Source: Patescibacteria group bacterium (lineage in GTDB: Bacteria > Patescibacteriota > Patescibacteriia > 2-12-FULL-60-25). From it: a DNA stretch of 64,000 nt. The DNA is taken from positions 35,309 to 99,308 of the forward strand of contig JAGOTP010000002.1 of the NCBI GenBank assembly GCA_018061755.1, read 5' to 3'. Below are positions 18,139-23,797 of this stretch, in pieces. The first letter of the stretch is position 1, and each line of letters starts with the position of its first letter. Under the pieces are notes generated by a model. It was not told where the DNA came from. It did not search any database and worked only from the letters and a program-made list of their open reading frames with translations. The position numbers and the translations under genes were made by a program.

Positions 18139-19332
18139 CTAGAAGGAGATTGGCACAAGAAGCACGCTTCTTTTCTGAGCTTCAATCGAAGAGAGAACTG
18201 GATTAATCGTCATAACCTCCAAAGACCGAGGACCCGTCCATTGCACGACCGGTGGAGTGGTCGCAGGATCTTGATCTGAAAAAGGCGCGCCTACCCAGCG
18301 CCCGGAAGGAATCTCTCCCGTGCGCAATGGGATCATTTTTCCCGTAACCAAATCGTAGATGACTATCGCTTGCGTCTGAACTGCTGCTTCTACAGGCATG
18401 CGTATACTCATATCTACACCAAAAAGATATCGGCTATCTGGCGAGCGTGTTTTATATGATAGCTTCCCTAAGGCAGCATTAGAGAGCACGAGCCTACCAG
18501 ATGATTTTTGCACGATAGCGACCGGATCATCCCCTAATCCACCTTCTGGAAAACCAAGTAACCACTGAGAAATCAGGAAGTTTTCACTCTTAGGAATCGC
18601 CATTGCCGTTAAAGAATAAGGCATACAGCCACCTTCACTTACCACTTGTTTTCCACCGAAGATCGTCCCGACAACGCTGTCTATCACGACATTTTTTCCC
18701 GTTGTCGTTTTCCAATCCAATCGATAATCATGGCAGCTCGCCGAAACATCCGTGCCGGTCATAATCGTTAGATGCGTCGCCTTGATCTCATCACCAATTT
18801 CATGCTCAATGACTGTACCGCACAGATCTAGTGAATCAGCCATAACATGAGCCTGTTCATTCCCGGTCACTGTATAAATGAGCCCTTTATTCACATCCTG
18901 ATCACCATAGGCCCCATTCATTGGACCTTCTCGTAGCCACAAGCGTACACGACATTCCGGCATCACAGGTTGAGCGGATCGAACGACTTCGACAGCAAAA
19001 ACCGTGCGCTCCACCTGATCGATATCTCCCAAACGCCAGCGATGAGTCGTTGTCGCCCCATCCGGCAAACGCACACCCAAACGCCAACGGTTTGAAAAAT
19101 AGATCAATGGATTACGAGAAAAGTCCTCTTCTTTCTCCAAATAAGCACCAGAAGTCGTCGTTGAAGCGGCTATTGCCAGCTCAGATGATGACGTCGTTGC
19201 CATATCTATTACCCCAGAAGGCATTGCTACCACTCGAACATCCGAAGCCCTGTTCGCCTTCCAAAGAGCTAGATACATGACCACAAATAGCACCACGATC
19301 AGGGCACCTAAAGCCAAATATGAACGCTTCAT
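18139..19332 (-). CDS. Hypothetical membrane-anchored/exported protein
   Basis: The ORF is trimmed to the first ATG at 19332 (MKRSYLALGALIVVLFVVMYLALW...); the track start at 19350 is TTG. No domain recognised. Confidence 0.6.
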   Translation of the reverse strand: MKRSYLALGALIVVLFVVMYLALWKANRASDVRVVAMPSGVIDMATTSSSELAIAASTTTSGAYLEKEEDFSRNPLIYFSNRWRLGVRLPDGATTTHRWRLGDIDQVERTVFAVEVVRSAQPVMPECRVRLWLREGPMNGAYGDQDVNKGLIYTVTGNEQAHVMADSLDLCGTVIEHEIGDEIKATHLTIMTGTDVSASCHDYRLDWKTTTGKNVVIDSVVGTIFGGKQVVSEGGCMPYSLTAMAIPKSENFLISQWLLGFPEGGLGDDPVAIVQKSSGRLVLSNAALGKLSYKTRSPDSRYLFGVDMSIRMPVEAAVQTQAIVIYDLVTGKMIPLRTGEIPSGRWVGAPFSDQDPATTPPVVQWTGPRSLEVMTINPVLSSIEAQKRSVLLVPISF

Positions 19333-19355
19333 GCACACAGTATAGCCCAAATAGC

Positions 19356-19401: not shown

Positions 19402-20016
19402 TTAGCAAGTTTGTCCCGTCGGAGCCGCCATCTGCAAGCGTGTGAAGCGCACAGGGGCGATTTTTTCTCCGATTTTGGAGATCTTCTCGTTCAAAATCTG
19501 CTCGATGGTGCGGTCTTCATCCTTGATGAACGACTGCTTGGTCAAACAGACGTCCGAGTACCATTTGTTGAGTTTGCCTTCGACAATCTTCTGTTTGATA
19601 TCTTCTGGCTTCTTGTCTTCTGCCAGTTCCGTCAAGAATTCCTGACGCTTCTTTTCGACTTCTTCGGCTGGAATCATGTCTGGACTGACGTAGGTTGGAT
19701 CCATGGCCGCTACTTGAAGCGCCAAGTCCGTCGCCAACTCCTTGAATTCATCTGTGCGAGCCACGAAGTCCGTTTCACACGAAAGTTCGAGCAACGCAGC
19801 CAACTTTCCGTTGTGATGAACATAGGACACGATCAACCCTTCGGTCGCCTGACGTTCAGCGCTCTTCTTCGCCGCCTTGATAGCACCCTTCTTTTTCAAG
19901 ACCTCAATCGCCTTCTCTGCATCACCACCGGCTTCTTCCAAAGCATTTTTGCAATCAACCATTCCGGCTCCGGTGCGGTTGCGCAATTCCATCACCATCT
20001 TGGCATCAACAGCCAT
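19402..20016 (-). CDS. tsf: Elongation factor Ts (short form)
   Basis: VMELRNRTGAGMVDCKNALEEAGGD (UBA-like N-terminus) and LLELSCETDFVART. It lies immediately downstream of rpsB, as in most bacteria. Confidence 0.93.
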   Translation of the reverse strand: MAVDAKMVMELRNRTGAGMVDCKNALEEAGGDAEKAIEVLKKKGAIKAAKKSAERQATEGLIVSYVHHNGKLAALLELSCETDFVARTDEFKELATDLALQVAAMDPTYVSPDMIPAEEVEKKRQEFLTELAEDKKPEDIKQKIVEGKLNKWYSDVCLTKQSFIKDEDRTIEQILNEKISKIGEKIAPVRFTRLQMAAPTGQTC

Positions 20017-20074: not shown

Positions 20075-20815
20075 CTATTTCGCCATTGGTTTGACGAGCG
20101 CACCACCGAGACGGGCGCGAGCACTCTCCCATTCCTGACGACCTTCGTTGATGGCAGCAGCCATGAGATCAGCCATGAGCTTGATCGCTTTGGCAGCGTC
20201 ATCATTACAAGGAATCGCGTAATCAACATCCGTTGGGTTCACATTGCTGTCGCAGAGAGCGATGACCTTTACACCACGACGCACCGCTTCATCCAAAGCC
20301 GTCTTATCCTTGCGAATGTCGAAGATGAAAATCGCGTCTGGGATGCGGGTCACGTCTTGCACGCCACCGAATTTGGTTTCGAGCAATTTGATTTCCTGGT
20401 TCAACTTGAGCTGTTCAAACTTGGTGTACTTGGACAATTCCCCCTTCTCCTGGCGACGCTTCAAATCCTTGTACTTGCGGATCTGCTGCGAGACGCTCGT
20501 GAAGTTGGTCAACGTACCACCCAACCAACGGTTGGTGACGTACGGCATGTTACAAGCTTTAGCCGCTGCTTCGATGGAAGCGATGGCTTGCTTTTTGGTT
20601 CCGACAAAGAGGATCGTTCCGCCGCGCAAAGCCGTTTTCTTGGCGTAGGATAAAACACTCTCAAGAGCGGTACGAGTCTGCTCAAGATCGATAATGTGAA
20701 TTCCATTCTTAGCACCGAACAAGTGTTTCTTCATTTTAGGGTGCCACTTGGAGGACTGGTGTCCAAAGTGAGCGCCGGCTTGAAGAAGATCAACAACGGA
20801 TGGGACAGTAGGCAT
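20075..20815 (-). CDS. rpsB: 30S ribosomal protein S2
   Basis: The ORF is trimmed to ATG 20815, preceded by AAAGGAG. LLQAGAHFGHQSSKWHPKM...ILFVGTKKQA...RWLGGTLTNF. Confidence 0.95.
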   Translation of the reverse strand: MPTVPSVVDLLQAGAHFGHQSSKWHPKMKKHLFGAKNGIHIIDLEQTRTALESVLSYAKKTALRGGTILFVGTKKQAIASIEAAAKACNMPYVTNRWLGGTLTNFTSVSQQIRKYKDLKRRQEKGELSKYTKFEQLKLNQEIKLLETKFGGVQDVTRIPDAIFIFDIRKDKTALDEAVRRGVKVIALCDSNVNPTDVDYAIPCNDDAAKAIKLMADLMAAAINEGRQEWESARARLGGALVKPMAK

Positions 20816-21098
20816 AAAATCTCCTTTACTCTCGACGTTTCCCACCAGCCACGCTCGGCTAAAAGGCCAAACAAGGAGGGTCGGTGGTTGTAAGCGAAAC
20901 GCGAGAAGCTGAATTAAGTGGCGCAAGTGTATCGAAAGATGGTTTTTTTGGCAAGAACTCGCCTAAAAACACGAAGGCCCGGCTTGGTGCATTGAGAAGG
21001 GGCTGGAATCGTTTCCAGCACCCACGCGACAGGACGTCGCGCATGCACCAACCGGGCAGAGACTTCGGGAAAGGACGAGGGGGGATCAGTTCACTGGA

Positions 21099-22421
21099 TC
21101 ACATCGCGGAGCAGACGAGGGCACCGCTGTCGCTCGCGGCACCACGAAAACCCCTGCCAGCGCCACCGTACATCTCCTCGTAACGGAGCAGTCCGGTGTT
21201 CATGGGGGCCGTACCGGCGTTGCAGAGCACCGTGATGCAGGAGAAGCTCGTCCCCGCACCGCATGAGAAGCCGCTGGGCAAGCGGCAGTCGGCCCCGCTG
21301 CAGACACTGTTGCCATCGGCTCCGAGGGGGATGCCCTCGAATCCGTAACCGCCACGCCAGTCAGTCGTGCTTGTGAAGAGGCGCGTGGGCACCTCTACGT
21401 CGGGGATCTGCAGGCGACGCAGGTCGATCCGGCAGGAACGCCGCCCAGAGGTGATCGGGGGGAGGCACGGGTTGTCGACGAAGGCACCGCGGTAGTTCGG
21501 AAAGCGACCGCTCACGATCCGCAGCCTGATCCCGACGATCTCGCCCCGCATATACACCAGCTCGAAGACCGGGTTCACCTCGGGCTCGCACACACCGCTC
21601 CCATTGCAGATGCCGGACCGGCAGAGGAGGCCGCAACGACCGCAGTGGGCGGCCGCCGTGTTGAGGTTCGCTTCGCAGCCGTTCGCCACATTGCCGTCGC
21701 AGTCACCGAAGCCGGGACGGCAGGCGTTGGCGCAGGCACCCGCACCGCAGGTCGGCGCGGCGTTGGGATTGGTCGTGCAGACCGTACCGCAGCGCCCGCA
21801 GTTGAGGCTATCGCCCTGGAGGTCGACGCAGCTCGTGCCGCAGCGGGTGAGACCCGTGGGGCAGGGCATGTCGACCGGGACGTCCGCACTCGCGTCGGCG
21901 TCGGGGGCCGTGGGGACGTCCGCGTCCGGGGTGGTTGCGGCGTCGCCGTCGGTCGGGACGTCGGGCGTGGGCACATCCGGGCGGTCGGCCAGGACGGACT
22001 CGTCCTCGGCGTCGCTACCGTCGGATCGGTCACCGCTCGCATCGGCGTCGGGCGCCGGGGTGACGTCCGCGTCCGGAGAGGTCGCGGCGTCGCCGTCGGT
22101 CGGGACGTCGGGCGTGGGGGCGTCGGGGCGGTCGGCCGTGGCGTCGTCGCCGTCGAGGGCCGCGTCGTCCGCGTCCCCGTCGAGCGGGAGGACGACGTCG
22201 CCGTCCTCGATCATGGTCACGTCCGGGTCGCTGTCGACCGGGACGTCCGCGCCGTCTTGCGGCGCGAGGTTGTCAGACGGGACATCGGTTCCCGTCTCGA
22301 ACGCCCCGTCAGGGGCAGAAGCACCAGGCGTGATCGCCTCGGTGTTGGTCGGATCCGGCTCGGCGCACCCAATCAGGGCGCCGAGCACGAACGAACCCAA
22401 CGTCAACCATACATTCTTCAT
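21099..22421 (-). CDS. Hypothetical lipoprotein (GC-rich island 5): acidic Asp/Pro/Thr repeats plus a cysteine-rich module
   Basis: N-terminus MKNVWLTLGSFVLGALIGC (lipobox-like) and GAGGAAGG upstream. Contains a 49-aa repeat present twice, then CGTSCVDLQGDSLNCGRCGTVC...CRPGFGDCDGNVANGCEANL...CGRCGLLC. A 60-nt spot count at 21901-21960 gives 48/60 G+C. Confidence 0.75.
   Translation of the reverse strand: MKNVWLTLGSFVLGALIGCAEPDPTNTEAITPGASAPDGAFETGTDVPSDNLAPQDGADVPVDSDPDVTMIEDGDVVLPLDGDADDAALDGDDATADRPDAPTPDVPTDGDAATSPDADVTPAPDADASGDRSDGSDAEDESVLADRPDVPTPDVPTDGDAATTPDADVPTAPDADASADVPVDMPCPTGLTRCGTSCVDLQGDSLNCGRCGTVCTTNPNAAPTCGAGACANACRPGFGDCDGNVANGCEANLNTAAAHCGRCGLLCRSGICNGSGVCEPEVNPVFELVYMRGEIVGIRLRIVSGRFPNYRGAFVDNPCLPPITSGRRSCRIDLRRLQIPDVEVPTRLFTSTTDWRGGYGFEGIPLGADGNSVCSGADCRLPSGFSCGAGTSFSCITVLCNAGTAPMNTGLLRYEEMYGGAGRGFRGAASDSGALVCSAM
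21893..22137 (-). repeat. In-frame direct repeat (about 97 nt, two copies, period about 147 nt) inside the island-5 ORF
   Basis: Copy 1 is about 21893-21990 and copy 2 about 22041-22137. They are near-identical (...GTCGCCGTCGGTCGGGACGTCGGGCGTGGG...) and encode ADRPD(A/V)PTPDVPTDGDAAT(S/T)PDADV. Confidence 0.7.
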
Positions 22422-22565
22422 CAGCGTGAACCTTCCTCAGCTCCATCGTAACGAAGCTGAACTGTGGAAAACGGAATGGACACCGACACCAGTCGGAACC
22501 CATGGACTACGAAGAACAGTCAGGTTTTCATCCCAACCGTTCATTGAACTCAGTGAACGAATTGT

Positions 22566-22594
22566 GAAACGTCATCTTGGAAACGTCATCTTGG
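22566..22594 (-). repeat. Perfect 14-nt tandem duplication in the 5' leader of the island-5 ORF
   Basis: AAACGTCATCTTGG occurs at 22567-22580 and again at 22581-22594, with the preceding G at 22566. This is about 150 nt upstream of the ATG at 22421. Confidence 0.8.
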
Positions 22595-22632
22595 ACAAGG
22601 TTTTTTACAACCAGGCACGAAGATAACACGCT

Positions 22633-22662
22633 ATTATAGCCAAAAAAGAGCGATTTTGTCAA
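22633..22662 (-). promoter_or_regulatory. Consensus sigma70 promoter (TTGACA-18-TATAAT) for the island-5 ORF
   Basis: The reverse strand reads GATTGACAAAATCGCTCTTTTTTGGCTATAAT. The -35 element sits in the loop and 3' arm of the prfA terminator hairpin. Confidence 0.55.
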
Positions 22663-22668
22663 TCGCTC
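22642..22668 (-). terminator. Rho-independent terminator of prfA
   Basis: GAGCGATT (22648-22655) pairs with AATCGCTC (22661-22668). On the minus strand it is followed by TTTTTT. Confidence 0.6.
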
Positions 22669-22723
22669 GTGCATTTTTGGTTTGGATATCAACTTTTCGC
22701 GTTAAACCAGCCTTGTTTAAACC

Positions 22724-23797
22724 CTATTCTTCCCCTTCTTCATCCGTCCCCCGCTTACCAGCTTTCAAAGCCTTGAAGATCTCCATGACATCTCCGTCCA
22801 AAATAATGGGAATGTTATGCCAGGTTTTCTTGATGCGATGATCCGTAATCCGATCCTGCGGGTAGTTATAGGTTCGAATCTTTTCCGAGCGATCGCCGCT
22901 ACCGATCTGTGAACGGCGCTCCGCTTCCAACGCCATCCGCTTCTTTTCTTGTTCTTTTTCCCAAATGCGAGCGCGCAAAATCGTAAACGCACGTTCGCGG
23001 TTCTGCGTTTGCGAACGTTCATCCTGACAGTTCACGACGATGCCCGTAGGATTGTGCGTCAAACGAACAGCTGAATAAGTCGTGTTTACAGACTGCCCAC
23101 CTTTACCACCCGCACAGAAGGTATCAATACGTACATCCTGTAGATCGATCTGGACTTCCGCTTCTTCGATCTCAGGCAAGACGGCCACTGTGATTGTTGA
23201 GGTGTGAATACGACCTTGTTTTTCCGTCGCTGGAACACGCTGCACACGATGCACGCCCGATTCAAATTTCATCCAACCATAAACGCTCACGCCTGACATG
23301 CCAAAGACGACTTCTTTGTAGCCACCTTGTTCGTTGCGAGATTCAGACAATAAGGACACCTTCCAACCCTGACGTTCCGCAAAACGCGTGTACATGCGCA
23401 AAACATCAAAGGCGAACAGACCGGCTTCATCTCCACCCGCACCTGCTCGAATTTCCACGATCACATCTTTGGCGTCCATCGGATCCGGTGGAATCAGTAA
23501 TAACTCTAAATCTTCTTCAGCTATAGCAAACTTAGGCAACAACTGCTCACGCTCCATCTCCCCCATCTGCTTCATCTCTGCATCATCTGATTTGGCCGCT
23601 TCATCCGCGTCGCGCAAGGCGGCCTCCAAGGAAAGATACACCTGAGCCACCTCAGCCAGCTCTTCGATGTGACGATAGGCGATCGACGCTTCTTTGTAGG
23701 CTTTTTGATCAGCAATCAAAACCGGATCCGCCATGCGGGCCTCGGCTTCGCTTTTGGCGCTCAGCGCCTTCTTGGCTTGTTCAGTAAATTTGGGCAT
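22724..23797 (-). CDS. prfA: Peptide chain release factor 1
   Basis: GGQ motif ([12 protein letters not shown]) and the RF1-specific PxT tripeptide ([14 protein letters not shown]). Confidence 0.95.

Follow-up and report, generated by a model that had tools for sequence, protein, structure and literature searches.

A GC-rich gene conserved between prfA and rpsB in a Patescibacteria genus probably encodes a hypervariable surface lipoprotein

Introduction

The Myxococcus xanthus protein TraA is a polymorphic surface recognition receptor that combines a PA14 head, Cys-rich repeats of the TIGR04201 type and a MYXO-CTERM anchor (PMC3325183, PMC6372800), and its Cys-rich repeats have been proposed to act as a rigid stalk presenting the polymorphic recognition domain (PMC3325183). 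The gene analyzed here is predicted to encode a lipoprotein with a Cys-rich module and a lineage-specific C-terminal domain. It was found in a 64,000-nucleotide stretch of a Patescibacteria genome (contig JAGOTP010000002.1, positions 35,309 to 99,308; hereafter the window), where the list of open reading frames (ORFs) places it, as a 440-amino-acid ORF of the minus strand, between prfA and rpsB/tsf. The genome is a metagenome-assembled genome (MAG) of 1.15 Mb in 37 contigs, 93% complete and with a GC content of 51%.

The prevailing view of Patescibacteria is that they live on the surface of other cells; to our knowledge, however, hardly any proteins for attachment or recognition have been identified in lineages other than Saccharibacteria. 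A sharp step in GC content is routinely taken as a sign of recent horizontal transfer or of MAG contamination. The gene is bounded by such a step, and an earlier note, made from the nucleotide sequence of the window, took it for an inserted island that pointed to a recent donor. We consider a different reading probable, namely that this is a native, vertically inherited gene of an Uhrbacteria-like Patescibacteria genus, that it has its own promoter between prfA and rpsB, and that its product is a hypervariable surface lipoprotein.

Results

A gene of the same architecture was found adjoining rpsB-tsf in eight other assemblies (L001, L005, L006/L022, L007, L008, L009, L010 and L011). The prfA gene is on the other flank in seven of the eight; the L001 contig ends inside the gene, in its acidic region, before the expected prfA. 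The closest homologue, P0001, is encoded by L001, a JGI metagenome contig, and is 72% identical to the window protein over residues 185-440. Its gene, with about 69% GC and a GC content at third codon positions (GC3) of 0.88, is located directly upstream of rpsB-tsf-(hypothetical)-gap, and the RpsB, Tsf and GAPDH proteins of this contig are 96-97% identical to those of the window. The more distant P0003 (621 amino acids, Logan contig L005) is encoded between prfA and rpsB in a contig whose backbone proteins are 81-89% identical to their window counterparts (72% for rpmE); its lipobox and acidic linker are followed by several Cys modules and by the C-terminal domain also seen in the window protein. 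Among 40 related genomes searched, seven of the nine that belong to the same genus had a match, which was between prfA and rpsB-tsf in six of them, and the whole protein matched in 13 of 41 near relatives. The orthologues are 433-621 amino acids long, and all of them have the lipobox, the acidic linker, Cys modules and the C-terminal domain. Their Cys modules comprise one to five full CGxCG...NGCE units, except for P0221, which has the cap only (range 0.5-5).

Since at least eight independent assemblies share the same rpsB junction, and the prfA junction where the locus reaches that far, a chimera is excluded and the gene can be placed in the common ancestor of the genus. The best named matches of the GAPDH of the window genome are from Patescibacteria and Candidatus Uhrbacteria, which suggests an Uhrbacteria-like lineage. 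Neither an integrase, nor a tRNA target, nor flanking direct repeats appeared in the ORF list or in a repeat scan of positions 20900-22700. The proposal of an inserted island with a recent donor was therefore not borne out, given the same-site orthologues in eight other assemblies. Homology within the lineage of the backbone genes, which the earlier note had set against its own proposal, was found for the whole protein: every full-length homologue is an orthologue at the corresponding position, next to rpsB-tsf, in a relative of the backbone lineage.

A peptide-pattern scan of public genome contigs, carried out with strict patterns, recovered one locus (L022), the same as one of the genus loci. 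Its public record, CAZENZ010000006.1, is titled 'uncultured Gammaproteobacteria bacterium', a label that looks wrong because the prfA, rpsB and tsf products are 87-89% identical to those of the window Patescibacteria genome. In a genome of another genus (g5, locus L016), a gene with a lipobox and a Cys module adjoins prfA and has a Gly/Ser linker and a different tail. Other genomes of the same genus (G004-G009) contain, at other loci, longer ORFs of 873-1003 amino acids with many tandem copies of the Cys module.

The composition of the gene is unlike that of its neighbors. It has 70% GC and a GC3 of 0.85, compared with 48-51% and 0.45-0.62 in the flanking genes. In line with the spot count in the earlier note, the most GC-rich part of the window is located here: positions 21001-22000 rank highest among the 1-kb blocks with 68.6%, and a 200-nucleotide peak of 78% is reached at 22000-22199. 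The GC step coincides with the coding sequence (CDS). The 3' untranslated region, which includes a hairpin, is intermediate (56%), and the promoter and leader are backbone-like (47%). High GC3 was observed in every part of the CDS, including the region encoding the lineage-specific head (0.83). Asp is encoded by GAC and GAT in a ratio of 47:6, compared with 28:74 in the backbone, and Cys by TGC and TGT in a ratio of 25:0, compared with 9:16; the mature protein is devoid of Lys. This composition is shared by the orthologues, whose GC3 is 0.80-0.92 within the genus and 0.71 in L005, where the backbone has about 0.45-0.55. At the four-fold degenerate sites of rpsB, tsf and prfA, the window and other members of the genus are 26-57% identical, values that are mostly near saturation, and the GC3 of the orthologues in this comparison is nevertheless still 0.84-0.92. 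Therefore, the GC-rich composition is stable, and not decaying, through saturation of the backbone synonymous sites. A polarized substitution count (3 weak-to-strong against 16 strong-to-weak changes) was considered as a sign of ongoing amelioration and was rejected: the rpsB control comprised only 28 codons, and the count is uninformative because the outgroup is both saturated and GC-rich, which biases parsimony in the same direction.

The rest of the genome was inspected for regions of similar composition. About 105 patches of at least 62% GC were found, totalling 91 kb or 8% of the genome. About 55 ORFs have a GC3 of at least 0.72; the products of many of them have a lipobox or a signal peptide and no Pfam family, and those of the GC-richest ones are Lys-poor on average. 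Some high-GC3 ORFs seem to encode cytoplasmic proteins, among them a possible nucleoside phosphorylase (from a reading of its N-terminus) and a dioxygenase-like protein. The genome also encodes a paralogue, a lipoprotein of 366 amino acids (MKLANIVLALSLASTGC...; contig C30, 142864-143964, plus strand; loci L003/L019) with a GC3 of 0.95. It has Cys modules of the Stig1/NF041328 type (49.1 bits for Stig1 and 73 bits for NF041328) and a different C-terminal region, and the patch that contains its gene (141301-144050, 69.6% GC) is the GC-richest one in the genome.

The lipoprotein gene is among the fastest-evolving genes and stands beside highly conserved ribosomal genes. In the comparison with L001, its ratio of nonsynonymous to synonymous divergence (dN/dS) is 0.26-0.29, and those of rpsB, tsf and gap are 0.015-0.045. 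Its dS (0.41-0.87) falls in the range of the neighbors (0.45-1.04), which is consistent with the gene having been co-inherited with them. Between L010 and L011 the RpsB proteins are identical and the head domains only 85% identical. The acidic linkers cannot be aligned between species; each is equally acidic and has its own internal duplications. Thus, the linker appears to evolve by local duplication, in such a way that charge and length are conserved rather than sequence.

The N-terminus, MKNVWLTLGSFVLGALIGC, has a Lys at position 2, an uncharged hydrophobic stretch and the residues L-I-G-C with the Cys at position 19. The criterion used for a lipobox was a basic n-region, an uncharged h-region and [LVI][ASTVI][GAS]C no further than about 35 residues from the N-terminus; GSFVLGALIG-C19 fits this rule, which is of the PROSITE PS51257 type. 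An equivalent lipobox is present in all orthologues. The genes for Lgt (PF01790, 141 bits) and LspA (PF01252, 79 bits), both above their cut-offs, are encoded in the window genome, as are a homologue of VKOR and four DsbA-like proteins with a thioredoxin fold, so that lipidation of the protein and formation of extracytoplasmic disulfides are plausible. The 165-residue linker that follows the signal peptide contains 25.5% Asp, 14.5% Pro and no Lys, and has a net charge of -45. The number of Cys residues is even in each of the two remaining domains, 16 in the module and 8 in the C-terminal domain.

Most of what the earlier note had read from this ORF was confirmed. The 440-amino-acid frame with its lipobox is present on the minus strand and follows the PROSITE-type rule; the acidic linker, Cys module and C-terminal domain are all in place; the Cys-rich segment has exactly the sequence that had been quoted, with its 16 Cys residues; and the C-terminal region is 160 amino acids long and contains 8 Cys. 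For the duplication of 49 amino acids in the linker, the period was right, at 147 nucleotides from start to start. The copies had been called near-identical, which does not hold, as they share 88.8% identity over 98 nucleotides at that offset and 83% over 127 nucleotides, and the second copy starts at 22040 instead of 22041. At the protein level, 31 of the 49 residues match, about 30 of them within the first 34 by hand count.

In the Cys-rich module, a single full CGxCGxxC...DCDGxxxNGCE unit is flanked by an N-cap and a C-cap, which amounts to about 1.5 modules. The earlier note had sensed a Myxococcota flavor in this pattern, and the searches agreed with it. The best family match was NCBIfam NF041328, 'MXAN_6577-like' (E 2.5e-11, model positions 19-102 of 145), with 43.7 bits compared with a cut-off of 100, which indicates that the window protein is related to NF041328 by its module and is not a member of the family. 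Pfam PF04885 (Stig1) gave 14.7 bits and an E value of 0.045, below its gathering threshold of 24.1. The Cu-binding_MopE repeat, PF11617, had no match at E <= 1 in the Pfam scan of the protein. With regard to the TraA-type repeat TIGR04201, the NCBIfam scan (E <= 1, release 20, presumed to hold this model) returned only NF041328. Among 95 database matches, the 13 outside ones with an organism name were all of the Myxococcota type, assigned to Myxococcales, Myxococcaceae, Polyangium, Polyangiales or 'Deltaproteobacteria/Proteobacteria' MAGs, and the three outside matches that were located are on contigs of uniformly 69-70% GC. In a sample of 301 genomes from across the Patescibacteria, an NF041328-like module occurred in three, all of them from this family or a neighboring one. 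The abundance of the module in many domain contexts among Myxococcota-type proteins, together with its patchy occurrence in Patescibacteria, favors an old import into the ancestor of the family from a GC-rich, Myxococcota-like donor.

An alignment of 29 module sequences has 15 invariant Cys columns. The window module is 67% identical to a module of P0006, a protein taken as Myxococcota-like, and at most about 50% identical to the modules of distant genus orthologues, the closest relative, L001, being excepted. In a tree of 397 modules (FastTree), the modules from candidate phyla radiation (CPR) members and those from outside are intermixed, with pairwise identities of 55-67% throughout. A search of the PDB by sequence with the module profile gave chance-level matches only (E >= 0.23). 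When the protein was modeled with AlphaFold2 (AF2) from four orthologue sequences, the predicted local distance difference test score (pLDDT) of the Cys module was about 33; hence, the 29-row module alignment was used. With it, the module was predicted to form short beta-hairpins at a mean pLDDT of 80.6. Most Foldseek neighbors of this model, and every one of the top ones, were rods of the EGF, Eph-CRD or Pfs25 type, with a best E value of 1.1 and template modeling (TM) scores of up to 0.41.

The C-terminal domain is, as far as can be judged from sequence searches, lineage-specific. When 1.84 billion representative proteins were searched with a profile built from three C-terminal sequences, only 11 matched at E <= 1e-3. 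The full-length matches examined, with E values up to 5e-9, all had the order lipobox, linker, module and head, and P0217 was a fragment consisting of module and head. A word-indexed search with the C-terminal region returned only P0001, and residues 185-440 had no match in the PDB by sequence. In the AF2 model obtained with four orthologues, the domain is all-beta with a pLDDT of 70-87.

The gene has its own predicted promoter and terminator (Table 1). The promoter scan found three promoter-like sites where 0.3 were expected from shuffled sequences, and the TTGACA-18-TATAAT site is a perfect consensus. Part of it coincides with the terminator hairpin of prfA (22648-22668). The Shine-Dalgarno (SD)-like GAGGAAGG is 9 nucleotides upstream of the ATG. 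The branched hairpin on the 3' side has a minimum free energy of -46.6 kcal/mol (z = -4.9), and none of 200 shuffled sequences folded equally well. With its T-run it is the likely intrinsic terminator of the gene, and a hairpin with a T-run is also found 3' of the orthologue in L005. An Rfam search of the leader and the 3' region found no family near its gathering score.

Within the leader, at 22567-22594, a unit of 14 nucleotides is perfectly duplicated in tandem (CCAAGATGACGTTT x2, as read on the transcribed strand). The possibility that it is a shared regulatory site was considered and rejected: no other copy exists in the window genome and none was found at the orthologous loci compared, so the duplication is probably the product of a recent slippage event. 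Downstream of tsf, positions 18139-19350 (minus strand) encode a hypothetical protein of 403 amino acids that is fast-evolving too, with 66% identity to its counterpart in L001, where the neighbors have 96-97%, and 26% to that of L005. Its GC3 is backbone-like (0.45); thus, fast evolution alone is not tied to high GC3 here.

Table 1. Coordinates of the lipoprotein gene, of the predicted features of its transcript and product, and of the neighboring genes (positions of the window)
Feature	Position	Strand	Basis or remark
prfA	22724-23797	- (same as lipoprotein gene)	
Sigma-70-type promoter, TTGACA-18-TATAAT, 12/12 consensus matches	22633..22662	-	Promoter scan
5' leader, ~205 nt, 47% GC, backbone-like	22422..22632	-	Ends in SD-like GAGGAAGG
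CDS, 440 amino acids + stop; probable hypervariable surface lipoprotein	21099..22421	-	ORF list, composition
Signal peptide and lipobox, residues 1-19 (...ALIG/C19)	22365..22421	-	Lipobox rule
Acidic low-complexity linker, residues 20-184	21870..22364	-	Composition
Two copies of 147-nt (49-amino-acid) repeat, 21882-22008 and 22029-22155	21882..22155	-	
Cys-rich module, residues 185-279, 16 Cys (all within 187-278)	21585..21869	-	
C-terminal beta-rich domain, residues 280-440, 8 Cys	21102..21584	-	CR(I/T)DLR(R/Q)L motif conserved
3' branched GC-rich hairpin 20980-21054, then T-run 20965-20972	20965..21054	-	Folding
rpsB	20075-20926	- (same as lipoprotein gene)	
tsf	19402-20016	- (same as lipoprotein gene)	

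Discussion

The features described above suggest how the protein may be displayed. The signal peptide would be cut at the lipobox and Cys19 lipidated through Lgt and LspA, which would anchor the protein to the outer face of the cytoplasmic membrane. The 165-residue Asp/Pro-rich region, presumably disordered, would serve as a spacer through the wall. The 'MXAN_6577-like' module, locked by disulfides, could form a short rigid stalk, of which 0.5 to 5 units would be stacked in the orthologues. At the tip, the lineage-specific, beta-rich domain, with its predicted disulfides, would be the functional end, a head that most likely binds the surface of a partner cell or of the environment. We infer surface exposure, the roles of stalk and head and the binding function. 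The lipoprotein is a concrete candidate for an attachment or recognition protein, being predicted to be lipid-anchored and disulfide-rich, with a head confined to its lineage on a stalk module shared with Myxococcota.

The proposal most directly suggested by the composition is a recent horizontal import, a single-gene island from a GC-rich Myxococcota donor that has not yet ameliorated. The sharp step from a GC3 of about 0.5 to 0.85, the foreign-looking codon usage, the Lys-free mature protein and the resemblance of the Cys module to a Myxococcus-named family and to Myxococcota proteins all speak for it. However, eight other assemblies have this gene at the corresponding locus, and the synonymous sites of their backbones are saturated with respect to the window genome; its dS relative to L001 equals that of the neighbors, the head domain is confined to this lineage, the promoter and leader are backbone-like, and the integrase, tRNA or direct repeats that could accompany an island were absent from the region scanned. 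Conserved synteny thus largely refutes a recent import, which we regard as highly improbable. An assembly artefact, either a chimeric join or a collapsed repeat, might be suspected in a 37-contig MAG, the more so as the acidic repeat region is where L001, a related contig, comes to its end. The junctions are nonetheless shared by independent JGI, Logan and GTDB assemblies and the reading frames are intact, so that this explanation is barely credible.

Several observations weigh against vertical descent of a native binding protein as the whole explanation. Vertical inheritance alone does not account for a GC3 of 0.85. With an overall dN/dS of less than 1, diversifying selection is not demonstrated. 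A Foldseek comparison of the head with the PDB found weak beta-sandwich neighbors (C2, FN3 and MD-1; best E value 0.09), none of which supports binding. The module tree leaves the direction and number of transfers unsettled because the origin of most of the 'outside' proteins is unlabeled. Finally, the head distances are star-like (65% identity between the window and L001, 72% between the window and L022 and 73% for the third pair) and discordant with those of RpsB (97, 91 and 91%), which leaves room for allele exchange at the locus. In that event, a fixed hypervariable locus would have undergone repeated replacement from a GC-rich pool made up of genus members or of a GC-rich partner. The persistence of high GC3 and the greater proximity of the window module to one of P0006 than to those of distant genus members fit such a history. 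On the other hand, the dS relative to L001 does not depart from backbone values, the search of 1.84 billion representative proteins gave no source of the head domain outside the lineage, the module tree has no resolving power, and the star-like distances could reflect episodic acceleration as well as old or exchanged alleles. We judge repeated exchange to be unlikely. A structural, metal-binding or redox role in the envelope, for example as a MopE-like Cu/Zn binder, a thiol-disulfide protein or a Ca2+-binding spacer of the wall or S-layer, is less likely still. The two CGRCG (CxxC) motifs, the charge of the Asp-rich linker and, in some of the outside homologues, a MopE-related annotation or a PF11617 match would agree with it. 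Nevertheless, the window protein lacks a PF11617 match, its Cys columns all appear to be invariant and to have a structural place in an EGF-like hairpin model, and a head that evolves so fast would be unusual for a housekeeping structural or redox protein. A native, vertically inherited and hypervariable surface lipoprotein is, in our judgment, the probable explanation.

Under this preferred explanation, both routine interpretations of a GC step, recent transfer and contamination, appear to be wrong here, the composition of the gene having stayed far from that of its genome through synonymous saturation. A tentative proposal, which we hold to be possible rather than likely, is that the GC-rich codons and the Lys-free, Arg-using composition are actively maintained by a process not described for Patescibacteria. 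Candidate processes would be selection on the transcript, GC-biased gene conversion where loci for surface proteins recombine, or an ongoing exchange of genes with a GC-rich partner. If maintenance is active, the modules of the Myxococcota type would suggest that the lineage has Myxococcota as its physical host or partner. Should the behavior be general for this class of genes in these genomes, island predictors and MAG decontamination tools will mishandle them, and it would be a real question in genome evolution if selection, biased conversion or an inflow of genes from a partner is the cause.

A literature search found no paper on conserved GC-rich genes for Cys-rich lipoproteins in Patescibacteria. 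A 2026 preprint on 'cysteine-rich repeats' and horizontal gene transfer was considered as a match and rejected, as its Cys pattern is different. The islands and horizontally acquired genes described in Patescibacteria (Gios et al., mSystems 2025, PMC12455944) are also compositionally deviant accessory-type genes in streamlined CPR genomes; the window gene differs in that its position is conserved across a genus, it is not accompanied by mobility genes and its composition has not converged on that of the host. A term search of that article found no mention of Myxococcota or lipoproteins.

In protein architecture, the nearest relatives are the NF041328/Myxococcota proteins with CGxCGxxC...DCDGxxxNGCE repeats, which are often matched by PF04885. 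They have the Cys spacing and motifs of the window module, which in them, too, is preceded by an N-terminal signal or lipobox and then an acidic linker and stands before variable C-terminal domains (fibrinogen_C, RCC1, SRCR and FGE-sulfatase). The window protein, in contrast, scores below the family cut-off, has about 1.5 modules, belongs to a Patescibacteria host of about 51% GC and carries its own lineage-specific head. Eukaryotic rods made of tandem EGF-like units or the Eph-receptor Cys-rich region resemble the predicted module as short disulfide-braced beta-hairpins, a likeness of fold type only, since the structural matches are below significance. For the proposed binding role, the closest functional analogy would be TraA. 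Both have a membrane anchor, a disulfide-rich repeat region as the probable stalk and a polymorphic distal domain, and both loci are highly polymorphic between close relatives. The two proteins differ in that the one encoded in the window would be anchored at its N-terminus, with the opposite polarity, and is built with another repeat family and without PA14 or MYXO-CTERM.

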